Assembly (NCBI GenBank): GCA_021287065.1
Contig: JAJTBE010000030.1
Coordinates: 106 to 64,105 of the forward strand
Origin: Bacillota bacterium
GTDB lineage: Bacteria; Vulcanimicrobiota; JAJTBE01
Length of the DNA: 64,000 nt
Reading direction: 5' to 3'
Shown: piece after piece, positions 1,940 through 45,608 of the stretch
Layout of the letters: each line of letters starts with the position of its first letter
How positions within the stretch are numbered: position 1 is the first letter of the stretch
Position numbers and translations under genes: made by a program
Notes under the pieces: generated by a model
Databases searched by the model: none
What the model saw: only the letters and a program-made list of their open reading frames with translations
What the model was told of the DNA's origin: nothing

Positions 1940-2653
1940 ATGTTAAAGATGTGTAACAAATTTGTTAAATTTTTCCGTTCGGTGGCCACTATGAAAATCC
2001 ATAATTTGGTTATTCCGGCTTTTGCCATTATTATACTGTTTTCAGGATTCCTTTCCGGCTGCACTTCTCAGGGAAATGCCCATACCGGAAAAAACGGATC
2101 CGGCGGGGGATTTTCCATTTTCGGAATAAAACCTTCACCCTCCCCAAAAATCAAACTCTCCGCAAGACAGCAGAAACTCATCGAAGGCGCCCGATCCAGA
2201 ATCGGTGATGTTTATGACGATTCGTGGTATGCCGACGGCTTCCCCCCAGCCGGGAGAAGCGCTTGTGTTGATATAGTCTATTTCGCTTATAAAAATAATA
2301 ATTTCGACCTGCAGACAAAAGTAAACGAGGATATAAAACAGAACAGCGGACTTTATCCTGCAGTAGGTGATTACGCTATAAACCACCGGCGCTGCCCCAA
2401 TCTTATTGTGTGGTTTTCGAGGTTTGCTAAAAAACTGCCTCTGGAAACGGACAAAAAGCACATTGCTCAATGGAAACCGGGCGATGTGATTTTCTGGAGT
2501 ATGCAGAACGACGGAGTTGCCGACCATATAGGCCTTGTCAGCGATCAGTTCAGCCCCGACGGAGTGCCTCTCGTCATTCATCAGGCTGCACCAACCTGTG
2601 TTGAGGAAAATGCTATGAATACCTGGAAAATTATGGGGCATTTCAGACTATGA
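1940..2653 (+). CDS. Lipoprotein, DUF1287-like (NlpC/P60-related fold)
   Basis: Signal peptide with lipobox LSGC. Motifs SACVDIVYFAY, NHRRCPNL, WKPGDVIFW, DHIGLVSD and GHFRL match what I recall of the DUF1287 family. Confidence 0.6.
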   Translation: MLKMCNKFVKFFRSVATMKIHNLVIPAFAIIILFSGFLSGCTSQGNAHTGKNGSGGGFSIFGIKPSPSPKIKLSARQQKLIEGARSRIGDVYDDSWYADGFPPAGRSACVDIVYFAYKNNNFDLQTKVNEDIKQNSGLYPAVGDYAINHRRCPNLIVWFSRFAKKLPLETDKKHIAQWKPGDVIFWSMQNDGVADHIGLVSDQFSPDGVPLVIHQAAPTCVEENAMNTWKIMGHFRL

Positions 2654-3402
2654 ACAATTCCGGAATTTTACCGTATTTTTCAGTAATTATGCCTGCTTAC
2701 AACGAAGAATCCGTTGTGGAAAATACCATTTCCGATCTGATAACTGAAATGGAATCACCCCGTTATGCCGAATTCTGCAACACTCCCGCAGGGAAAGACT
2801 GGTTTGAGATTGTTGTAACCGACGACGGCAGCAAAGACCGCACTTTCGATTCACTCATCAGAATCGGTGAAAAAGATAAGAGAATCAGGATTTTCAGACA
2901 CGACAAAAACCTTGGCTTTGGTGCAGCTGTTATGAACAGTGTTGGCAGAGCCAAAGGGGAAAAACTTCTTCTGGTCCCCTCCGACGGTCAGTTTGATCCC
3001 GGAGAAATCATAAAATTCATAAAAGCTCTCGACGGATATGATCTTGTTATTGGCGTAAGGCCCGACAGACAGGGATACAACATCTTCAGAAAGTTTGTTT
3101 CGTTTGTTTATATCAGTCTGGTTAAGATGCTATTCGGAAAATCATATAAAGATACCAACTGGGTTCAGGCATGGAAAAGAGATGTCTTTCTTAAAATAAA
3201 ACCTCAGAGCAGCGGGGTTTTTTTTCTTCAGGAAACCATAACCCTCGCAGCAGGTGAACATTTCAGAACCGGGGAAGTGCCCTCAAGCCATATTGCAAGG
3301 GAAAAGGGAAAGGCAAGCGGTGGGAGATTATCCGTAATTCTCTTTACTCTTTTTGAAATGCTGAAATTCCGCTTCACTACAAAAAACCATGGTTCCCTCT
3401 GA
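2650..3402 (+). CDS. Family-2 glycosyltransferase (dolichol-phosphate mannosyltransferase-like)
   Basis: FSVIMPAYNEE, VVTDDGS..., DKNLGFGAA, LVPSDGQFDP and a C-terminal TM helix. Its ATG overlaps the upstream stop. Confidence 0.8.
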   Translation: MNNSGILPYFSVIMPAYNEESVVENTISDLITEMESPRYAEFCNTPAGKDWFEIVVTDDGSKDRTFDSLIRIGEKDKRIRIFRHDKNLGFGAAVMNSVGRAKGEKLLLVPSDGQFDPGEIIKFIKALDGYDLVIGVRPDRQGYNIFRKFVSFVYISLVKMLFGKSYKDTNWVQAWKRDVFLKIKPQSSGVFFLQETITLAAGEHFRTGEVPSSHIAREKGKASGGRLSVILFTLFEMLKFRFTTKNHGSL

Positions 3403-4175: not shown

Positions 4176-6017
4176 TTGTCTATGAACCATTCCGACATAA
4201 ACCCGGTTCCCGGGCAGATTCTGAATGGACGCTATGAAGTTCTTGAAAAGCTGCATGCCGGAGCAATGGGAGTCGTTTACCGGGCGAAGGACCAGCGATT
4301 AAATAAGATTTTTGCTCTCAAGTCCATGATTACTCCCGATGCTGAAGCTGATAGGAGCAGGGCGGGGGAGTGGTTTGAACGGGAAGCAAACATCCTGTGC
4401 AATTTAAGACATCCCGGAATTCCTGTTGTTACCGACTTTTTTGAAGAACTCCGCAGGCTTTGGCTTGTGATGGATTTTATAGATGGAATAAATCTTGGAT
4501 CCATGCCTCTTCCGGTCAGTGAAGCGGAAGCGGTAAAAGTAGCTCTTCTGGCTCTCGATATTCTGAAATACATACATAAAAAGGGTATAATTCACCGGGA
4601 TATAAAAACAGAACACTTCATTCTTGAAAACAGCTCAAACCGTTATTTTCTTGTGGATTTCGGAACCGCCCGATTCGCAAAACCTGCCGCCGTAAAAACC
4701 GCCATCGGAACCCACGGCTTCGCTTCCCCTGAGCATTACGAAGGCAAAGCTGATGCAGTTTCCGATATTTATTCCCTCGGTGCCGTTCTTCACCATATCC
4801 TTACCGCAAAAGACCCCAGAAACGGAATTCCTTTTGAATTTGAGCCTATTGAAAAAGCTGCTCCCGGTGTGTCTCAGAAAATGGCGTTTGTTGTTGATAA
4901 AGCACTTTCTTATTATCCCAAGGACAGATTTCAGAATGCGGAAGAAATGGAAAAAATTCTGAATGAATATACCACCGCCGACAGCAATTCCAAATCCGGC
5001 AAAACGGAATCTTCACAGGCACACAATACAAAAATTATGCCCCATTCCCCTGCAAAAGCAAGATCAGGAAGCACTCCCTCCGTTTTTTTATCCCCGGAAC
5101 CTGTTGAAATTCCTAAGATAACAGGCAGATTCAACCTCCGACATGCCGGACTTGTCAAAAAGGCACTTTTTATATCAGATGTAACAATCGCAGTTGTTTT
5201 CTATGATGGAACAGTTGTTTTCAGAAACTCAGCCGACGGCAAAGACGAAGGTTCTCTCACCAATATCGGTGCTTTTGCAGCAAACTGCTGCGATGCTGCG
5301 GTTTCCCCTGATTACGAAACCCTTGCCCTTGCTATGGATGATAAGAGAATTTTTCTGTGGAACCTGAATACCCGGAGAAGAACAGCAACCCTGTCGGAAC
5401 ATACAAGAGTGTTATCCTGTGTCCGGTTTGGCACAAAAGGAAAAATCATCTCAGGAGATTCCGGAGGGAATATCTGCATATGGAATACTTCGCCGGTTCG
5501 GTTCAAAGGTTCCGCAAATATGGGAAATTCTGCCTGCACAGCCCTCGCCTTTGGGGAAAATGATAAAATTTTCTTCTGTGGAAATGACCAGGGTTTCATC
5601 TTCAACGGAAATACAATTTTCCTTGAAAACGAAGATGCGGAATTTAAAAGCAGGCAGATTCATAACGGCTCAATAATATCGATTTTTCATTCCGGAGCCG
5701 ATGATAAGTTAATTACCACAGGAGTTGACGGATTTATCAGAATTCACAAAATCGAATCAGGCTCCCGCCTGCAGCTTCAGAATATATCAGAATTGAATTT
5801 TAACGGAAGACCGGTGAAATCAACTGCCTTCAATAATCAGAAAAACCTGATCGCCGCTGGGTTTGAAGACGGGGGAACCGCCATAATCAACTTCTCCGGA
5901 CTGAATATAACCGTAGAAACGAAAGAACATACAAAACCTGTGGAAAGCGTGGATATATCCCCAAATGGAAAAATAATCTGCACCGCAGACGAAGATGAGA
6001 TTATTTTGTGGGGATAG
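4176..6017 (+). CDS. Ser/Thr protein kinase fused to a C-terminal WD40-like beta-propeller
   Basis: Kinase subdomains GAMGVVYRAKD, ALKSM, HRDIKTEHFIL, DFGTA and ASPEH are present. The usual KPxN is KTEH (the Mg-binding Asn is replaced by His). The C-terminal half has repeated WD-like blades (ICIWN, IILWG). Confidence 0.85.
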   Translation: MSMNHSDINPVPGQILNGRYEVLEKLHAGAMGVVYRAKDQRLNKIFALKSMITPDAEADRSRAGEWFEREANILCNLRHPGIPVVTDFFEELRRLWLVMDFIDGINLGSMPLPVSEAEAVKVALLALDILKYIHKKGIIHRDIKTEHFILENSSNRYFLVDFGTARFAKPAAVKTAIGTHGFASPEHYEGKADAVSDIYSLGAVLHHILTAKDPRNGIPFEFEPIEKAAPGVSQKMAFVVDKALSYYPKDRFQNAEEMEKILNEYTTADSNSKSGKTESSQAHNTKIMPHSPAKARSGSTPSVFLSPEPVEIPKITGRFNLRHAGLVKKALFISDVTIAVVFYDGTVVFRNSADGKDEGSLTNIGAFAANCCDAAVSPDYETLALAMDDKRIFLWNLNTRRRTATLSEHTRVLSCVRFGTKGKIISGDSGGNICIWNTSPVRFKGSANMGNSACTALAFGENDKIFFCGNDQGFIFNGNTIFLENEDAEFKSRQIHNGSIISIFHSGADDKLITTGVDGFIRIHKIESGSRLQLQNISELNFNGRPVKSTAFNNQKNLIAAGFEDGGTAIINFSGLNITVETKEHTKPVESVDISPNGKIICTADEDEIILWG

Positions 6018-6095: not shown

Positions 6096-6821
6096 GTGAT
6101 GGAAAAACAGAAACAATATTTTGAAAACCGTGATGAAGATAAACGAACCGATCTTCACAAAGCGGCAATTATCGGCGACAGAAAACTGATTACTTCTCTT
6201 CTTACCAAAGGCGCTGATGTTAACGCCCGGGACATAAACGGAGCTACTCCCCTGCATTTTGCTGCTCTGATGGGACATAAAAAATGCCTGATTATTCTAA
6301 TCTCACATAAATCGGATCCCAATGCCGGAGATAACAACGGGGCAACCCCTCTCCATCTTTCCGTTTATATGGGGCACAAAAAAGCAACCCTGCTTCTGAT
6401 TTCCAACGGCGCCAATATCAACGCCAAAGATAACTTTGGCGATATGCCCCTCGAAATAGCCGTCCGTCAGAATAATAAGGAACTTACCAATCTTCTTCTT
6501 GCCAATGGTGCAGCCGTCAACGAAAGATCGGGCCAGGGCCTCACCGCTCTGCATTATGCTGTTGTCGGCGGCAATGATAATATTGTTTCCCTGCTTCTTG
6601 CCAACGGCGCCGATGCCAACCTGCCGGAAACAACCGGCAGAACTCCCCTCCACATGGCAGCCTACCTCGGATATGGCAAAATTGCGGAAAGTCTGCTTAA
6701 AAAAGGCGCCGCCATTCACGCTGTTTCCGCAGAAAATTTTAATGCCGTTGAACACGCTGTCGCTGCAGGCCATAGGGCATTGGCGGAACTGCTGCAGAAA
6801 GAATCGGGAAAAAGCAGATAA
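6096..6821 (+). CDS. Ankyrin-repeat protein (about 7 repeats)
   Basis: Reiterated G(A)TPLH(F/L)AA...GH...LL...GA(D/N)(V/I)NA motifs. Confidence 0.9.
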   Translation: MMEKQKQYFENRDEDKRTDLHKAAIIGDRKLITSLLTKGADVNARDINGATPLHFAALMGHKKCLIILISHKSDPNAGDNNGATPLHLSVYMGHKKATLLLISNGANINAKDNFGDMPLEIAVRQNNKELTNLLLANGAAVNERSGQGLTALHYAVVGGNDNIVSLLLANGADANLPETTGRTPLHMAAYLGYGKIAESLLKKGAAIHAVSAENFNAVEHAVAAGHRALAELLQKESGKSR

Positions 6822-6902: not shown

Positions 6903-7562
6903 ATGATTGAAGCTGTTTCTCAAAAAAAGGAAAAAAACTGGCTGGATACTCTTGCCCTTTTAATATCAGGCGTACTCAGCCCTTATCTTATTATGCCCGT
7001 TTTTGTGGTAATCGTTTGTCTTACTTATTCAAAAACAATCACCGAATTCATCACATATTTTCTGTTGTGCTTTTCAGCATCAACAATCATACCTTTTGTA
7101 TATATATTGATTTGTGTAAAACGCAACAATATCACCGATTTGCATGTGGCTGAACTGGGACAGAGAAAGAAGCCTTTTATAGTAACCCTTGTGGGTGTAG
7201 CATTGATAATCGGAATTCTTACGATGATTCATGCACCAAAGGAAATAATTATTCTTGGTTATGTAATGCTTCTAAACGGCTTTATCTTCTTCATAATCAG
7301 CCTGTTCTGGAAAATCAGTATGCATTCATCCATTCTTGCCGGTGTTGTAACATCCCTGATGGTGCTCGTTAATTCAACCTACGGCTACGGTTTTCTCCTT
7401 ATCCCCATCCTTATCTGGGCAAGAATGAGAAGACAGCGCCATAGTCTTTATCAGGGCATTACAGCCACCATTCTGGCAAGTCTCGGAACATTTCTTTTAT
7501 TCAAGGCTTTTGGATATCAGCTCATAAAAACAGCATTAGCTTACATCTTACATTGTGCCTGA
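6903..7562 (+). CDS. Polytopic inner-membrane protein of unknown function (possibly PAP2-like)
   Basis: 219 aa with about six hydrophobic helices. Weak SMHSS / RRQRH motifs reminiscent of PAP2, not conclusive. Confidence 0.5.
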   Translation: MIEAVSQKKEKNWLDTLALLISGVLSPYLIMPVFVVIVCLTYSKTITEFITYFLLCFSASTIIPFVYILICVKRNNITDLHVAELGQRKKPFIVTLVGVALIIGILTMIHAPKEIIILGYVMLLNGFIFFIISLFWKISMHSSILAGVVTSLMVLVNSTYGYGFLLIPILIWARMRRQRHSLYQGITATILASLGTFLLFKAFGYQLIKTALAYILHCA

Positions 7563-7660
7563 TGTGCAGCTGATGCCGGTTTTTTGAAAAAGTATTTGAA
7601 TTCACAGCTCCGATATGGATTCAGCAGGTCTGCTTTTGTCAAACCTGCCGCAGGCTTTGC

Positions 7661-8869
7661 CTAATTCCACTTATTGCCGTCATCCCAGAACTGAGCTAAA
7701 CCTTTCTTATGGTAAAGCTTCATCAAATCCTGAAAGAAGTAATCTCTTTTGACGCGGTATTTTTCGCCCACTATCGAAACTATATAGTCTTCATCAAAGT
7801 TTTCAAGGATAGCCAGAGCTTCTTCCCTGAGGGGGAACCTTACTTCCCTTTTAACAAAACTTTCGTCCTCGGTAACATAACAGACATCCATCTCCTCGTA
7901 TCTTTCATCATCAAGAAGATTGTAGATAAACTTAACGATCTCCTGATCTCTGTAGAAAGAGAGCATTCTCAGGGCTATCTGCGCCTTGAGGAGATCATTT
8001 TCCGCCTTTGCGATAACTTCGAAAAGCCCTCTGAAACTGTGCTCGGCACAGATAATATTCATATCAAGGGCTACCTGTTCTATTTCGTCAATTGAAGAAA
8101 AACCTTCAAGAATATGCCTTCTGAACTGTCTCAGGCAGTTCAGCGCCCGGGGACCGCCGATAATAGCCAGGGAATCCATAGCTGTAAACGGAATTATATC
8201 ATCACTCATATACAGGTATTTATTGAGAACAGGAATAAAATCATCCCATCCCGGATTTCCGAGGGCTTCAATTATCTGTTCAATATAAATCTCACGCTCC
8301 TCGAACATTTCATCCGGAGGTATGGTTTCGTAATAAACAAGAGCGTCATAGAGGTATTTCTTGAGTCTGTCGTTTTTCAGCATTTTTGCTGTAAGAATGT
8401 ACTCAAACCCGAAATCATAATATCCGGCGCAGAACTTCTGAATTACATATTCCCTGTTGTTAATAGTCTGTATGAGAAAGCGGACATGATCCGTATCTGA
8501 AAAGCCCGGAGCATTTTCGATGCTCGCTGTCATGTTGGAAAGAAGATGGTAGAACAGATTCAGCAGTTCATCCCGTTTGGAAAACTCTTCCATTATGAAA
8601 CCGTTGTAACGGGCAATCTGACACGCAAATATAAAAACCGACTCCGCCTCAGCTTCACTGTAGAAATATGAATCAAGCCTGTCCAGAATTATTTCTGTAA
8701 TTGCGCATATCTTAAAAATGATATTTTCCGGCCTTCTCAGTTCTGCCAGTTTTTTCAGCTCATAAAAAAGCTCGTTGTCCATTGCGGGGAGGACAGGATT
8801 TCTGTCAATATCTTCCTCACCGGGAAGTATGTTAAAATAATTCCAGTCTTTGTACAAATAAGTCTCCAT
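7661..8869 (-). CDS. Acidic cytoplasmic protein with HEAT / PBS-lyase-like repeats
   Basis: 402-aa ORF. The segment EALGNPGWDDFIPVLNKYL...SLAIIGGPRALNCL resembles PBS-lyase HEAT repeats. Confidence 0.5.
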   Translation of the reverse strand: METYLYKDWNYFNILPGEEDIDRNPVLPAMDNELFYELKKLAELRRPENIIFKICAITEIILDRLDSYFYSEAEAESVFIFACQIARYNGFIMEEFSKRDELLNLFYHLLSNMTASIENAPGFSDTDHVRFLIQTINNREYVIQKFCAGYYDFGFEYILTAKMLKNDRLKKYLYDALVYYETIPPDEMFEEREIYIEQIIEALGNPGWDDFIPVLNKYLYMSDDIIPFTAMDSLAIIGGPRALNCLRQFRRHILEGFSSIDEIEQVALDMNIICAEHSFRGLFEVIAKAENDLLKAQIALRMLSFYRDQEIVKFIYNLLDDERYEEMDVCYVTEDESFVKREVRFPLREEALAILENFDEDYIVSIVGEKYRVKRDYFFQDLMKLYHKKGLAQFWDDGNKWN

Positions 8870-41751: not shown

Positions 41752-41973
41752 ATGCAAATGTCCTTTATAAAGTCTGTTATGCCTGATACTGAAGTTTGGG
41801 CATTGGGGAGCAGGGTTGACGGAACCTGTCATTCCGGGAGTGATCTTGATATTGTGAGCAGAAATCCCATTGATTTATCCAAACCGGCCGGCAGTAAGGC
41901 AAATATACTCAAACAGAAGCTGTCTGAGGGGAATATCCCCAATGCCCATGAATTAAGGCATGAATTTGTCTGA
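41752..41973 (+). pseudogene. Truncated minimal-nucleotidyltransferase (MNT)-like ORF running into a MITE copy
   Basis: ALGSRVDGTCHSGSDLDIV resembles the GS...SDxD nucleotidyltransferase motif. The ORF is short at both ends and its 3' end (NAHELRHEFV) is encoded by the terminus of MITE copy H. Confidence 0.4.
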
Positions 41974-42456: not shown

Positions 42457-44562
42457 TTAGCAGAACGCATAGAGGCTTCCGTCCGCTGTTCCTATATAGA
42501 TTTTTCCCGAAGTGCTCATTGCAGGTGATGAAATAATTTCCGATCTCAGATTGAACCACCACCGCGCCTTGCCCCAGGGGTTCAGTGCGTAAAGTATGCC
42601 GTCTCTTGATGCTGCATAGATGGTTCCTTCGTCTGAAGCCATAGGGGAGGAGAGCATAACATCATCGGTGCTGAAGCGCCATTTTTCCTGACCGTTTCTG
42701 TTTATGGCATAAAGATGCCTGTCGGTGGCGGCGATATATACTGTGCCATCTTTTCCCACAGCAGGAGATGAGCTTATTACCCCTTCTGTTTTGTATTTCC
42801 ACACAGGTTTGCCGAAGAGATTGAGGGCATATACAAATCCATCATCGCATCCGGTTATTATGTAGCCTTCTTTTGAGATAGCCGGTGTTGTTCTGATGGG
42901 CTTGGGGAGTCTGATGCTCCAGCGGATTTCCCCTGTGGGGTGGATTGCGATTATTTCTCCGTTTTTAGTGCCGAAAAGCAATGTTCCGTCATAGCACATG
43001 GAAGCGGATGTAGTTATTCCTGATTCGAATTTATTCTTCCACAGCAGGTTGCCTCTGTTGTCGATGCAATGGAGGTTTCCTGTGGAATCGCTGATGTACA
43101 CTTTCTTTTCACCAAGAAGCGGCGAATGTTTGAATGATGATTTTATCTTATAGCGCCATTTTTCCGCACCCTTTGAATCGAATGCATAAAGGCAGCCGTC
43201 TTCTGATGGAATGTATATTTTTCCGTTGATTTCCGCCGCGCCTGCAGATGCCACCGGACCTGAGGTTTCATACTGCCAGATTTGTTCTCCGGTTGGGCTG
43301 AGGGCAAAAATAAAATTGTCGTGGTTGCCGAAAAAGACATTGCCTTCTGAATCAGCGACAGGTGGAGCTGTGATTTTTCCGCCTGTGGTAAATTGCCATA
43401 AAACCGAGCCCTGTGTGTGGGCTGTAACAGGTGAAAGTCCGCTTCTCTGTGCGTTTCCCCTGAAGTGGTTCCAGACCGGATTGTCGAGCTGCAGGGAGGC
43501 GCTTGAAGGTTCTTCTTCTGTTGTTGCAACGCCGTTTGATTTTACCTGAACTTCCAGAACTTTGGTTTTTTTATGCTTCAGTGATGAAATTTCGTCTTCG
43601 ATGCTTCTGATTTCGTGCTGGAGATCCGAAAAGCGATCTTCCCTGACAATCATTGTGGCAATAGCTGCCCTAAGTTCCCTTGCGGACTGATAGCGGTCGG
43701 AAGGGTTGAGATGCAGGGCTTTTTCCACAATAATTTCGAGAGTTGCAGGCAGTTCGGGATTAAGCTTGCGAAGAGGTTCGAAATGGAACGGCGCTTCATA
43801 CTGGGGATCTTTTCCTGTGAGCAGGTGGTGGAGTGTTGCTCCCAGAGAATAGATATCCGACCGGGGTTCCGATTCGCCCCTGTATTGCTCCGGCGGAGCA
43901 TATCCCTGTGTGCCCACCATTGTTGCTTTTTCCTGAGAAATAAAAAGACGGGCTATGCCAAAGTCAACCAGTTTGACTTTTCCTTCGCCGGTGATCATTA
44001 TGTTGGATGGTTTAAGATCTCTGTAAATAATGGGTGGATTTCTGAAATGCAGATAATCAAGTACATCGCATATTTCAAGAGTCCAGCGGAGAACTCTTTC
44101 AACAGGAATCTTTTTTCCTGCTTCGGTTAATCTTCTAAGTATGCGGCGCAGATCCAGACCTTCGATATAATCCATCACAAGATAATATCTGTGGTTTTCA
44201 ACGAAATGCTCGAAGAAATGTGGCACTGCGGGATGGTTAAGTCCGCAGAGAATCTTGGCTTCCCGCTCAAAGCGTTCAATGGCATCGGTCCGTTCCCTGA
44301 TGCTGGTGAAGCGGTCTATGAGTTCTTTGATTGCCACAGGGCTTCCGTATTTTACATCGTTTCCTCTGTAAATATAGCCCATTCCGCCGACATTGATAAG
44401 TTCGTCAACTTTAAATCTGCCTGATAAAAGAAAGCCCTTGTGCAGTGTATGGAGAGTGGATGGAATAGAAGGCGAATCACCGAACTTCATATTTCTTCCG
44501 CACACAACACAAAACCGTGCCTGGCCTCTGTTTTCAGCCCCGCATTCAGGACATTCGATCAT
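42457..44562 (-). CDS. Ser/Thr protein kinase with an N-terminal zinc-ribbon and a C-terminal PQQ-like beta-propeller
   Basis: CPECG...CVVCG zinc ribbon. Canonical kinase motifs VGGMGYIY, VAIKEL, YRDLKPSNIM, DFGIA and APPE. About 8 PQQ/BamB-like repeats (G.VY....DG.LYA). Confidence 0.9.
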   Translation of the reverse strand: MIECPECGAENRGQARFCVVCGRNMKFGDSPSIPSTLHTLHKGFLLSGRFKVDELINVGGMGYIYRGNDVKYGSPVAIKELIDRFTSIRERTDAIERFEREAKILCGLNHPAVPHFFEHFVENHRYYLVMDYIEGLDLRRILRRLTEAGKKIPVERVLRWTLEICDVLDYLHFRNPPIIYRDLKPSNIMITGEGKVKLVDFGIARLFISQEKATMVGTQGYAPPEQYRGESEPRSDIYSLGATLHHLLTGKDPQYEAPFHFEPLRKLNPELPATLEIIVEKALHLNPSDRYQSARELRAAIATMIVREDRFSDLQHEIRSIEDEISSLKHKKTKVLEVQVKSNGVATTEEEPSSASLQLDNPVWNHFRGNAQRSGLSPVTAHTQGSVLWQFTTGGKITAPPVADSEGNVFFGNHDNFIFALSPTGEQIWQYETSGPVASAGAAEINGKIYIPSEDGCLYAFDSKGAEKWRYKIKSSFKHSPLLGEKKVYISDSTGNLHCIDNRGNLLWKNKFESGITTSASMCYDGTLLFGTKNGEIIAIHPTGEIRWSIRLPKPIRTTPAISKEGYIITGCDDGFVYALNLFGKPVWKYKTEGVISSSPAVGKDGTVYIAATDRHLYAINRNGQEKWRFSTDDVMLSSPMASDEGTIYAASRDGILYALNPWGKARWWFNLRSEIISSPAMSTSGKIYIGTADGSLYAFC

Positions 44563-44600
44563 TAATATCCTCCGGGTAGCTTTTTATTTTTAATATGGTA

Positions 44601-45608
44601 TCAGCCAAGGTATTTTTTCGCCGCATTAAATAGATTGTTTTTAAACTCAGCAACCCCTGAATACCGGAGATCCGGCTGGAGATTCAGAGCTTTGCTGATG
44701 ACTTTATCGAGATCGTTGCTTACATCGGGCCTGATAATGGCAAGGGGAACAAAATGAAACGGAGCTTCCTTTGCGGGATCCTTGCCTGCAATCATTCCGT
44801 AGAGTGTTGCCGCAAGCCCGTAAATGTCGCTTCTGTTGTCAAATTCCTCACGATACTGTTCCGGTGATGCATAGCCTCTTGCACCGAGCAGGGAGCCAAA
44901 CTTGCCCAGTCTGGGAACCCAGGGTAGAAGAATGACTTTCCGTGATGAATTGATAATGACTTTGGTGGGTTTGATATTCCGATGCACAATGGGTGGTGAA
45001 TTCTGATGAAGATACTCCACCAGTTCGCATAGAGCCAGCACTATTTTAACTGCATTGGCAACTGGGATGCCTTTTGCCTGTGAAATATCGCCCCGTATGA
45101 GTTCCGCCAGAGACTTGCCCTCAGCCTTTTTCATTACGACTATGTATTTCTTTTCTTCGTAATAAGTTTTAACGACTCTGGGAATATACTTATGCCTTAT
45201 ATAGGAAAGAACCTCGCCGTCATTGAGGAATCTGTGCATATCCCGCATTGTGATGTCCGGTTCGTGCAGATAAATGTTGTCGATTTTAACTACCACTTCT
45301 CTGTCCCGTTTTGTGTCAAAAGCGTTATAGACGATTCCCTTGCCGTCCTCGTATATTTTTTCAGTAAGAAGAAAGCGTTCTTTAACGAGGACTTCATCGG
45401 TGAGTTTCACAGGGTAGGTTCCCGTTTCGGCGCAGGGAAGTTCTTCGTCGCCGTTGCTTGTGGGGTTGTCAGAACGGATGGGGTATCCGCATTTTATGCA
45501 AAATTTGGCAGTAACTCTGTTACTGCTTTTGCAAAGAGGACAGATTCTGCAGGTTGTTCCAGGAAGCATAAATACACTCTTTAAGAATTCGGTCTTTATA
45601 TTCTCCAT
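44601..45608 (-). CDS. Zinc-ribbon pseudokinase (Ser/Thr kinase fold with catalytic residues substituted)
   Basis: CRICPLC...CIKCG zinc ribbon. Kinase fold retained (VVVKID, ASPEQ), but the catalytic loop reads HRNIKPTK (Asp to Asn, Asn to Lys) and DFG is replaced by LGKFG. Confidence 0.8.
   Translation of the reverse strand: MENIKTEFLKSVFMLPGTTCRICPLCKSSNRVTAKFCIKCGYPIRSDNPTSNGDEELPCAETGTYPVKLTDEVLVKERFLLTEKIYEDGKGIVYNAFDTKRDREVVVKIDNIYLHEPDITMRDMHRFLNDGEVLSYIRHKYIPRVVKTYYEEKKYIVVMKKAEGKSLAELIRGDISQAKGIPVANAVKIVLALCELVEYLHQNSPPIVHRNIKPTKVIINSSRKVILLPWVPRLGKFGSLLGARGYASPEQYREEFDNRSDIYGLAATLYGMIAGKDPAKEAPFHFVPLAIIRPDVSNDLDKVISKALNLQPDLRYSGVAEFKNNLFNAAKKYLG

Follow-up and report, generated by a model that had tools for sequence, protein, structure and literature searches.

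A zinc-ribbon pseudokinase encoded directly upstream of a zinc-ribbon Ser/Thr kinase-propeller protein in a bacterial contig

Analysis of a 64,000-nucleotide stretch of the 64,151-bp contig JAJTBE010000030.1 of a metagenome-assembled genome (MAG) (the whole stretch is referred to below as the window) revealed two adjacent genes on the minus strand, each encoding an N-terminal zinc ribbon followed by a protein kinase fold. The upstream gene encodes a short protein with a degenerate active site, a pseudokinase by the standard definition, and the downstream gene encodes a canonical Hanks-type Ser/Thr kinase fused to a beta-propeller. The features of the pair are listed below, with residues of the pseudokinase numbered on its 322-aa form and structural features taken from AlphaFold2 (AF2) models where stated.

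44601-45569, minus strand: pseudokinase gene, 322 aa from M14 (NCBI MCE1245577.1; Pfam Pkinase and AF2)
45486-45542, minus strand: pseudokinase zinc ribbon CPLC...CIKCG, residues 10-28 of 322 (invariant Cys and AF2)
44607-45407, minus strand: kinase-like (pseudokinase) domain, residues ~55-321 (Pfam, PknB alignment, AF2 and Foldseek)
44961-44984, minus strand: degenerate catalytic loop H196-R-N198-I-K-P-T-K203, canonically HRDLKPxN (alignment and columns of 360 domains)
44919-44924, minus strand: P216-W217 where DFG has Asp-Phe, the Gly position being deleted ([LVI]PW in 12 of 12 loci)
44563-44600, minus strand: intergenic spacer of 38 nt, with GGAGG at 44569-44573, 6 nt ahead of the kinase ATG
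42457-44562, minus strand: Ser/Thr kinase-propeller gene, 701 aa (NCBI MCE1245576.1; AF2 predicted local distance difference test [pLDDT] 86.4)
44497-44553, minus strand: kinase zinc ribbon CPECG...CVVCG, residues 4-22 (Zn_Ribbon_1 21.8 bits, cut-off 25)
43684-44418, minus strand: canonical Hanks kinase domain, residues ~49-293 (Pfam Pkinase 136.5 bits, cut-off 31.7)
43540-43683, minus strand: long helix, residues 294-341 (48 aa), with the conserved pattern ...EIxSIExEIxxLKxKK... (AF2 and orthologue alignment)
42460-43416, minus strand: eight-bladed PQQ/BamB-like beta-propeller, residues 383-701 (Pfam and AF2)

The pseudokinase and the kinase-propeller protein

The open reading frame (ORF) called mechanically for the upstream gene spans 44601-45608 on the minus strand, with its start ATG at 45608, and a preliminary description of this stretch had accordingly given a pseudokinase of 335 aa. 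The ORF exists as described, but its product most likely starts at M14 (45569) and has 322 aa, because all orthologues as well as the NCBI protein MCE1245577.1 (322 aa) begin there. The Pfam model Pkinase (PF00069) matches this protein at 71.6 bits, against a cut-off of 31.7. Its ribbon scored 20.6 bits with Zn_Ribbon_1, under the Pfam cut-off of 25; the four cysteines (C10, C13, C24 and C27) are invariant in 11 of 11 full-length orthologues in our alignment, and AF2 modelled the ribbons of both window proteins at pLDDT 82-88. Residues 36-52, which are Ser/Thr-rich, are predicted by AF2 to form a disordered linker from the ribbon to the kinase fold. The model of the pseudokinase as a whole (pLDDT 87, predicted template modelling score 0.81) has the bilobal kinase fold predicted intact, and its best Foldseek matches were PknB (the closest, E = 6e-20), PknI, Stk1 and PknA.

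We determined the catalytic motifs by aligning the pseudokinase with PknB structures and with its partner, and by column extraction over 360 kinase domains. The glycine loop of the pseudokinase is YEDGKG, that is, x-D-x-x-G as against GxGxxG, with the second Gly replaced by Asp (D75). The beta3 Lys is kept in VVVKID (K95), and the alphaC Glu position is occupied by Asp, or by Ser or Ala in 4 of the 12 family members. HRNIKPTK combines an Asn in place of the catalytic Asp (N198, codon AAT at 44976-44978 on the minus strand) with a Lys in place of the metal-binding Asn (K203). LLPW replaces DFG, with one residue missing, and the [LVI]PW signature was confined to the pseudokinase family among the proteins retrieved in this analysis. 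ASPEQ is kept, as are the Asp of subdomain IX and the Arg of subdomain XI. The preliminary description had already noted EDGKG, VVVKID, HRNIKPTK, ASPEQ and the missing DFG, and had proposed an alignment with Hanks-type kinases; our comparison with PknB, the partner and the 360 domains agreed with it on every substitution and added the loss of the metal-binding Asn and the Asp at the second Gly of the glycine loop.

By the standard definition, in which the VAIK Lys, the HRD Asp or the DFG Asp is lost, the upstream protein is a pseudokinase, since its HRD Asp is changed to Asn and its DFG Asp to Pro. Judged by these residues, it should be unable to transfer phosphate in the canonical way. The retained HRD His and the Trp at the DFG Phe position would be compatible with an assembled regulatory spine.

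The downstream protein carries NVGGMG, VAIKE (K79), the alphaC Glu (E101), YRDLKPSN, DFG, T214 and T218 in the activation segment, and APPEQ, and its catalytic residues and motifs are invariant among its orthologues in two alignments. With every canonical catalytic residue present, it is predicted to be a catalytically competent kinase, as had been proposed from YRDLKPSN, DFG and APE. C4, C7, C18 and C21 of its ribbon are likewise invariant among orthologues, so that the CxxC...CxxC ribbons previously suggested in both proteins are borne out by their cysteines and by the models, with Pfam scores just below threshold. The helix after the kinase domain is a possible coiled-coil in the model and is followed by a disordered linker (residues 339-367, AF2). 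The propeller consists of eight blades of ~40 aa, each opening with a Trp (residues 389, 429, 469, 508, 548, 588, 628 and 668), in line with the roughly eight PQQ repeats counted before. It was modelled at pLDDT >90 and, over residues 383-700, matched PQQ_2 at 152.7 bits (1.6e-44) and Beta-prop_ACSF4 at 192.9 bits (1.3e-56); "PQQ" is here the name of a repeat type only and says nothing of a ligand.

No terminator-like site was found in a scan of the spacer between the two genes, which appear to be co-transcribed as a two-gene operon. The hydropathy scan revealed no transmembrane segment in either the pseudokinase, whose 19-aa hydropathy maximum is 1.5, or the kinase-propeller protein, and both are expected to be soluble and cytoplasmic. 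No RNA family was found in an Rfam scan of the window.

Conservation and gene order

Word-indexed and exhaustive profile searches, the latter over 1.84 billion representatives, identified a pseudokinase family of 299-328 aa (P0001-P0007, P0062 and P0069, and those of loci L012, L025 and L026) whose members are 39-85% identical to the window pseudokinase. All counts over 12 loci given here include the window, and the loci were independently assembled. The same substitutions, H[RL]NIKPxK, [LVI]PW, xDxxG and K-x-D, were found by alignment in all 12. The family has 48 invariant positions, among them the replacement residues N198, K203, P216, W217 and D75, and also K95, D97 and the SPEQ and PFHF motifs. 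In a GTDB scan the family was present in one of 185,579 species genomes (L012), the other 12 loci of that scan having ordinary or differently degenerate kinases. The family is thus rare, and so far it is known only from metagenomes.

The contig is labelled "Firmicutes/Bacillota bacterium" at NCBI, but the named relatives of both genes are all MAGs of Vulcanimicrobiota/Eremiobacterota; the label may be wrong. In L010, the closest relative (85% identity), a 53-aa ORF of its own (4520-4681) carries the ribbon and overlaps a 280-aa pseudokinase ORF (4644-5486), and this split is probably a frameshift in the assembly.

Multi-kinase-domain proteins topped the profile search. We set them aside as evidence for a fusion of the two genes, since their scores were summed over domains and some were artefacts of eukaryotic gene models (P0106). 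Two of the proteins retrieved, P0066 and P0068, have four tandem kinase domains, the first degenerate (HGN or HMN, without the DFG Asp) and the other three canonical, fused to EAD9/TCAD9 and a STAND NTPase. They are bacterial tandem pseudokinase-kinase proteins in a context resembling that of conflict systems. A different pseudokinase-like architecture was seen in Chloroflexota, where a 512-aa protein of an Anaerolineales MAG (JAFGQI010000046.1; L014, 5974-7512) has a zinc ribbon, HRN for HRD, GFG for DFG and a C-terminal Schlafen/AlbA_2 domain, and keeps the Asn and the Lys.

Ratios of nonsynonymous to synonymous rates (omega, NG86 method) were 0.08-0.23 for the pseudokinase versus 0.065-0.16 for the N-terminal module of its partner, and they were computable for few pairs only, because synonymous sites (dS) were saturated in most, including window versus L010. 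In the saturated pairs the nonsynonymous rate (dN) of the pseudokinase was 0.09-0.66, about 1.1-2.3 times that of the partner except in two pairs, window-L010 and L010-L007, in which the two were equal. The pseudokinase gene is therefore under purifying selection, as both the omega values and the low dN at saturated dS indicate, and it evolves somewhat faster than its partner.

The pseudokinase gene lies directly upstream of an orthologous zinc-ribbon/kinase/propeller gene in all 12 loci, with spacers of 4-94 nt in the 11 other than the window. The preliminary description had raised two doubts, that the Asp-to-Asn change might be a sequencing error and that the pairing might not recur in related genomes. 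The substitution is invariant in 12 loci, and the pairing is kept in every one of them despite rearranged flanks. Because of this, together with the purifying selection, a sequencing error, a decaying pseudogene and a chance adjacency are all excluded.

A pseudokinase without a neighbouring kinase was never found among the recovered loci. The kinase-propeller gene, in contrast, does occur without it: L027 has a 43%-identical orthologue with the same AP_endonuc_2 neighbour, and L028 has a 36%-identical one. The linkage of the pseudokinase to the kinase is thus obligate and the dependence is one-sided. L028 also contains, downstream of the kinase-propeller gene, a ribbon-less 295-aa kinase-like gene (7227-8114) with a degenerate glycine loop, FHDLNPSN and DYG, which represents a second, differently arranged pairing of a kinase with a small kinase-like protein.

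The flanks of the pair are not constant. On the upstream side, the window, L007, L010 and L026 have a divergent AP_endonuc_2 TIM-barrel gene; on the downstream side, L001 and L003 have Peptidase_S26 and GTPase genes. Five loci have downstream of the pair a conserved membrane protein of 411-451 aa, which has a membrane helix at its N-terminus and belongs to no Pfam family, at the following positions.

L004, 3579-4814: 411-451-aa membrane protein
L007, 4480-5715: 411-451-aa membrane protein
L012, 3885-5240: 411-451-aa membrane protein
L025, 7179-8414: 411-451-aa membrane protein
L026, 7179-8417: 411-451-aa membrane protein

This protein was considered as a core member of the pair and rejected, as tblastn found no counterpart in the window. 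The window neighbours are housekeeping genes, namely those for WhiA, GAPDH, an MtaB-like, an RluD-like and a TIM-barrel protein. We identified a short ORF (41752-41973, plus strand, 73 aa) with a fragment of a nucleotidyltransferase domain in the gap of ~860 nt that follows the kinase gene on its downstream side; this ORF may be the remnant of a toxin-antitoxin-type nucleotidyltransferase gene. DUF1287 and glycosyltransferase-2 genes adjoin the AP_endonuc_2/pseudokinase region in L010 (1290-2704) and lie ~40 kb off in the window (1940-3402); the genomes of these close relatives have been rearranged. A third Hanks-type kinase gene (4176-6017, plus strand, 613 aa), whose product is fused to a WD40 beta-propeller, was found elsewhere in the window and is directly followed by a gene for an ankyrin-repeat protein (6096-6821, plus strand). 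The organism therefore carries several kinase-propeller fusions.

Origin and possible role of the pseudokinase

Over the ribbon and the kinase region the two window proteins are 33% identical (E = 5e-52), and an unusual DPxxEAPFHFxPL motif is common to both. Among the 1.84 billion representatives, the pseudokinase profile had its best single-domain matches in zinc-ribbon/YRD-kinase/PQQ-propeller proteins. Judged by this similarity, the two are paralogues. The simplest history would be a tandem duplication of a zinc-ribbon Hanks-type Ser/Thr kinase gene that gave a two-gene operon. The upstream copy would have lost, or never had, the helix and the propeller, and its active site would have degenerated while the ribbon and the bilobal fold were kept. 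In the downstream copy the propeller is likely to be a ligand- or partner-sensing module, and the long helix probably promotes self-association.

According to this account, which we regard as probable as a whole, the dead copy acts non-catalytically on or through its sister kinase. This is suggested by the conservation of the fold and of the replacement pocket, by the Trp and His compatible with a spine, and by the obligate linkage. The pseudokinase could be a heterodimer partner that sets the activation state of the kinase, either as an allosteric activator or as an inhibitor of trans-autophosphorylation, or it could be a scaffold sharing the docking surface of the kinase. The ribbons of the two proteins might, as the preliminary description suggested, have a part in dimerisation or localisation. 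The reading of the two genes as a pseudokinase-kinase pair is well supported as regards sequence, conservation and synteny, from which we infer the regulatory mechanism, the physical interaction of the two proteins and its sign.

Several of our results weigh against this account. With an invariant beta3 Lys and an invariant Lys in place of the metal-binding Asn, the pseudokinase might still bind a nucleotide or have an unconventional activity. The back-to-back interface of the PknB type (R10, L33 and D76) is only partly kept: the equivalent of R10 is invariant, that of D76 is K in the window pseudokinase, and that of L33 is not conserved. Among the annotated neighbours of the pair (for FHA, those of the window and the related loci) there is no gene for an FHA or PP2C protein or for an obvious substrate. 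Promoter and terminator matches around the pair did not rise above the shuffled expectation, and a -35/-10-like site at 45629-45600 and a terminator-like hairpin at 42323-42304, with no excess over shuffles, are suggestions only.

The upstream protein might act as a substrate or adaptor of the kinase, being phosphorylated, for example in its linker, and then recruiting other proteins. The pseudokinase domain of Mycobacterium tuberculosis MviN, which is phosphorylated by PknB and then recruits FhaA, is a precedent (PMC12599244), and the predicted linker at residues 36-52 is both disordered and rich in Ser and Thr. However, the linker sequence is not conserved, the activation segment has no conserved phospho-acceptor, and no FHA-domain gene was found among the annotated neighbours in the window or related loci, and we consider an MviN-like role unlikely. 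The invariant beta3 Lys (K95) and the invariant replacement residues that suggest a constrained pocket (N198, K203, P216, W217 and D75) could also belong to an enzyme that binds ATP without metal, with Lys203 in place of Mg2+, and carries out a non-canonical phosphorylation or a different reaction; metal-independent ATP binding via extra basic residues has been proposed for ULK4 and the DLHK family (PMC12599244). Such an enzyme would have to work without a catalytic base, without either metal ligand and without a glycine loop, with an Asp where the loop must contact the phosphates, and with Ser or Ala for the alphaC Glu in 4 of 12 members, which makes it quite improbable in our view.

We have even less reason to regard the two genes as functionally independent, their adjacency being a mere leftover of the tandem duplication. 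Some lineages (L027 and L028) do have the kinase without the pseudokinase, and no shared partner was identified. But the two genes have the same order and orientation, side by side, in every one of the 12 loci, at 39-85% protein identity, with synonymous sites saturated and flanks reshuffled, and the pseudokinase was never found alone, so that independence appears very unlikely. Finally, the pair might be a kinase-type module for anti-phage defence (PD-T4-6, mad6 or tandem-kinase-like). The PADLOC models PD-T4-6 and mad6 match both proteins, and EAD9, TCAD9 or STAND domains, which are typical of conflict systems, occur in some of the multi-kinase proteins that the profile search recovered. These PADLOC matches are limited to the generic kinase domain, the MAD6 scores are 63.8 bits for the pseudokinase and 125.3 bits for the kinase against an NCBIfam cut-off of 460, and the neighbourhood is of a housekeeping kind. 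Moreover, by pairwise identity the divergence of the pseudokinase between loci goes in step with that of its partner, and the AP_endonuc_2 synteny is partly kept, which indicates vertical inheritance and not a mobile island. We therefore hold a defence module to be extremely unlikely.

A bolder form of the account of non-catalytic action on the sister kinase can be put forward only tentatively, and we would give it somewhat less than an even chance. The pair may be the first dedicated prokaryotic pseudokinase-kinase allosteric module, in which the pseudokinase would form a heterodimer with the kinase-propeller sensor and switch it on or off in the manner of STRAD-LKB1 or KSR-RAF, having evolved independently in the Vulcanimicrobiota lineage; the Lys/Asn/Pro-Trp pocket would then be a locked conformation or a metal-free nucleotide sensor. 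If the two proteins do interact, pseudokinase-based control of kinases would have arisen independently in bacteria via simple tandem duplication. Bacterial pseudokinases have been catalogued only recently, almost none of them with a known function, and they may or may not control cognate kinases allosterically in the way of their eukaryotic counterparts (PMC12599244). The locus offers a minimal test system, with two soluble proteins as active and dead paralogues in one operon and the kinase-alone relatives as natural controls.

Comparison with known systems

The downstream protein has the architecture of the AfsK/RqkA type, a kinase with a C-terminal eight-bladed PQQ/BamB-like propeller. This architecture is common: with scoring confined to 8,000 candidates that had words in common with the query, more than 7,600 proteins were found at E < 1e-30, and the kinase and PQQ-propeller domains recur in each of the 120 listed. 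In Streptomyces coelicolor, the soluble Hanks kinase AfsK has a propeller of PQQ repeats at its C-terminus, and KbpA, encoded immediately upstream of afsK, binds unphosphorylated AfsK and blocks its autophosphorylation (PMC6988585), a precedent for the proposed action on the sister kinase. The window resembles this system in that the gene for a putative modulator precedes a kinase-propeller gene. The window kinase is not an AfsK orthologue, with 141.3 bits against an equivalog cut-off of 1300 (NCBIfam NF053615). To our knowledge, KbpA has not been described as a kinase paralogue, and AfsK has no N-terminal zinc ribbon that we know of. RqkA (DR2518) of Deinococcus radiodurans begins with a Ser/Thr kinase, followed by a linker and a propeller of eight blades that has tryptophan-docking motifs; activation of the kinase needs this propeller, and the enzyme is stimulated by PQQ (bioRxiv 10.1101/2020.04.06.028845). 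It differs from the window kinase in that no pseudokinase partner or zinc ribbon has been reported for it.

Bacterial pseudokinases have been catalogued in seven families, ActPs1-3, GLW, CP1, DYD and DLHK (PMC12599244), in each of which some or all members have another residue at the VAIK Lys position (bioRxiv 10.1101/2025.01.12.632604). The window family, whose K95 is invariant in 12 of 12 members, fits none of them when compared by their published descriptions, and on that basis it is outside the seven; its signature of a kept Lys with HRN, Asn-to-Lys and LPW is new to this catalogue. The closest catalogued family is ActPs2, which shares the change of HRD to HRN and the DFG deletion (PMC12599244). 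In ActPs2, however, the beta3 Lys is changed to Arg, there are insertions of ~30 aa between beta3 and alphaC and of 200-250 aa in the activation loop as well as a C-terminal transmembrane segment, and the range is actinobacterial, whereas the window pseudokinase keeps the Lys and has 322 aa, a short activation segment and no transmembrane segment. ActPs1 is often fused to PQQ_2 (PMC12599244). None of the seven families is described as the operonic partner of its own active paralogue, and we found no description of a bacterial operonic pair of dead and live kinase paralogues in the open-access literature searched.

PknG of M. tuberculosis was the only listed fold match of the pseudokinase to give an alignment exceeding the query in length (331-342 columns, counting gaps, versus 270-298 for the others), and the alignment may extend into the N-terminal part of the pseudokinase model. 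CxxC(G)...CxxCG is present in both window proteins, and the root-mean-square deviation of the PknG match is high (5.7-7.9 A). PknG differs from the window proteins in its C-terminal TPR domain, of which Pfam showed no match in either of them, and in having no propeller and no pseudokinase partner; in the window pseudokinase, moreover, a disordered linker ties the ribbon to the rest of the protein.

In Clostridioides difficile there is a bacterial precedent for the tuning of an active kinase by a dead one. CD2148 is Hanks-like without the Asp and Asn of the catalytic loop and does not autophosphorylate; it is phosphorylated only with PrkC present and modulates CwlA phosphorylation that depends on PrkC (PMC9674922). 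Unlike the window pseudokinase, CD2148 is anchored in the membrane and lacks both a zinc ribbon and a propeller partner, and its status as a pseudokinase is uncertain. We know of no encoding of CD2148 beside prkC.

In eukaryotes, pseudokinase-kinase partnerships include STRAD-LKB1, HER3-HER2, JAK JH2-JH1 and KSR-RAF, as well as the tandem kinase-pseudokinase proteins of plants. These combine a dead paralogue of intact fold with an active kinase, which is the mechanism we propose for the window pair. The eukaryotic partners either share a single chain or come from unlinked loci, whereas those of the window would be separate products of one bacterial operon.

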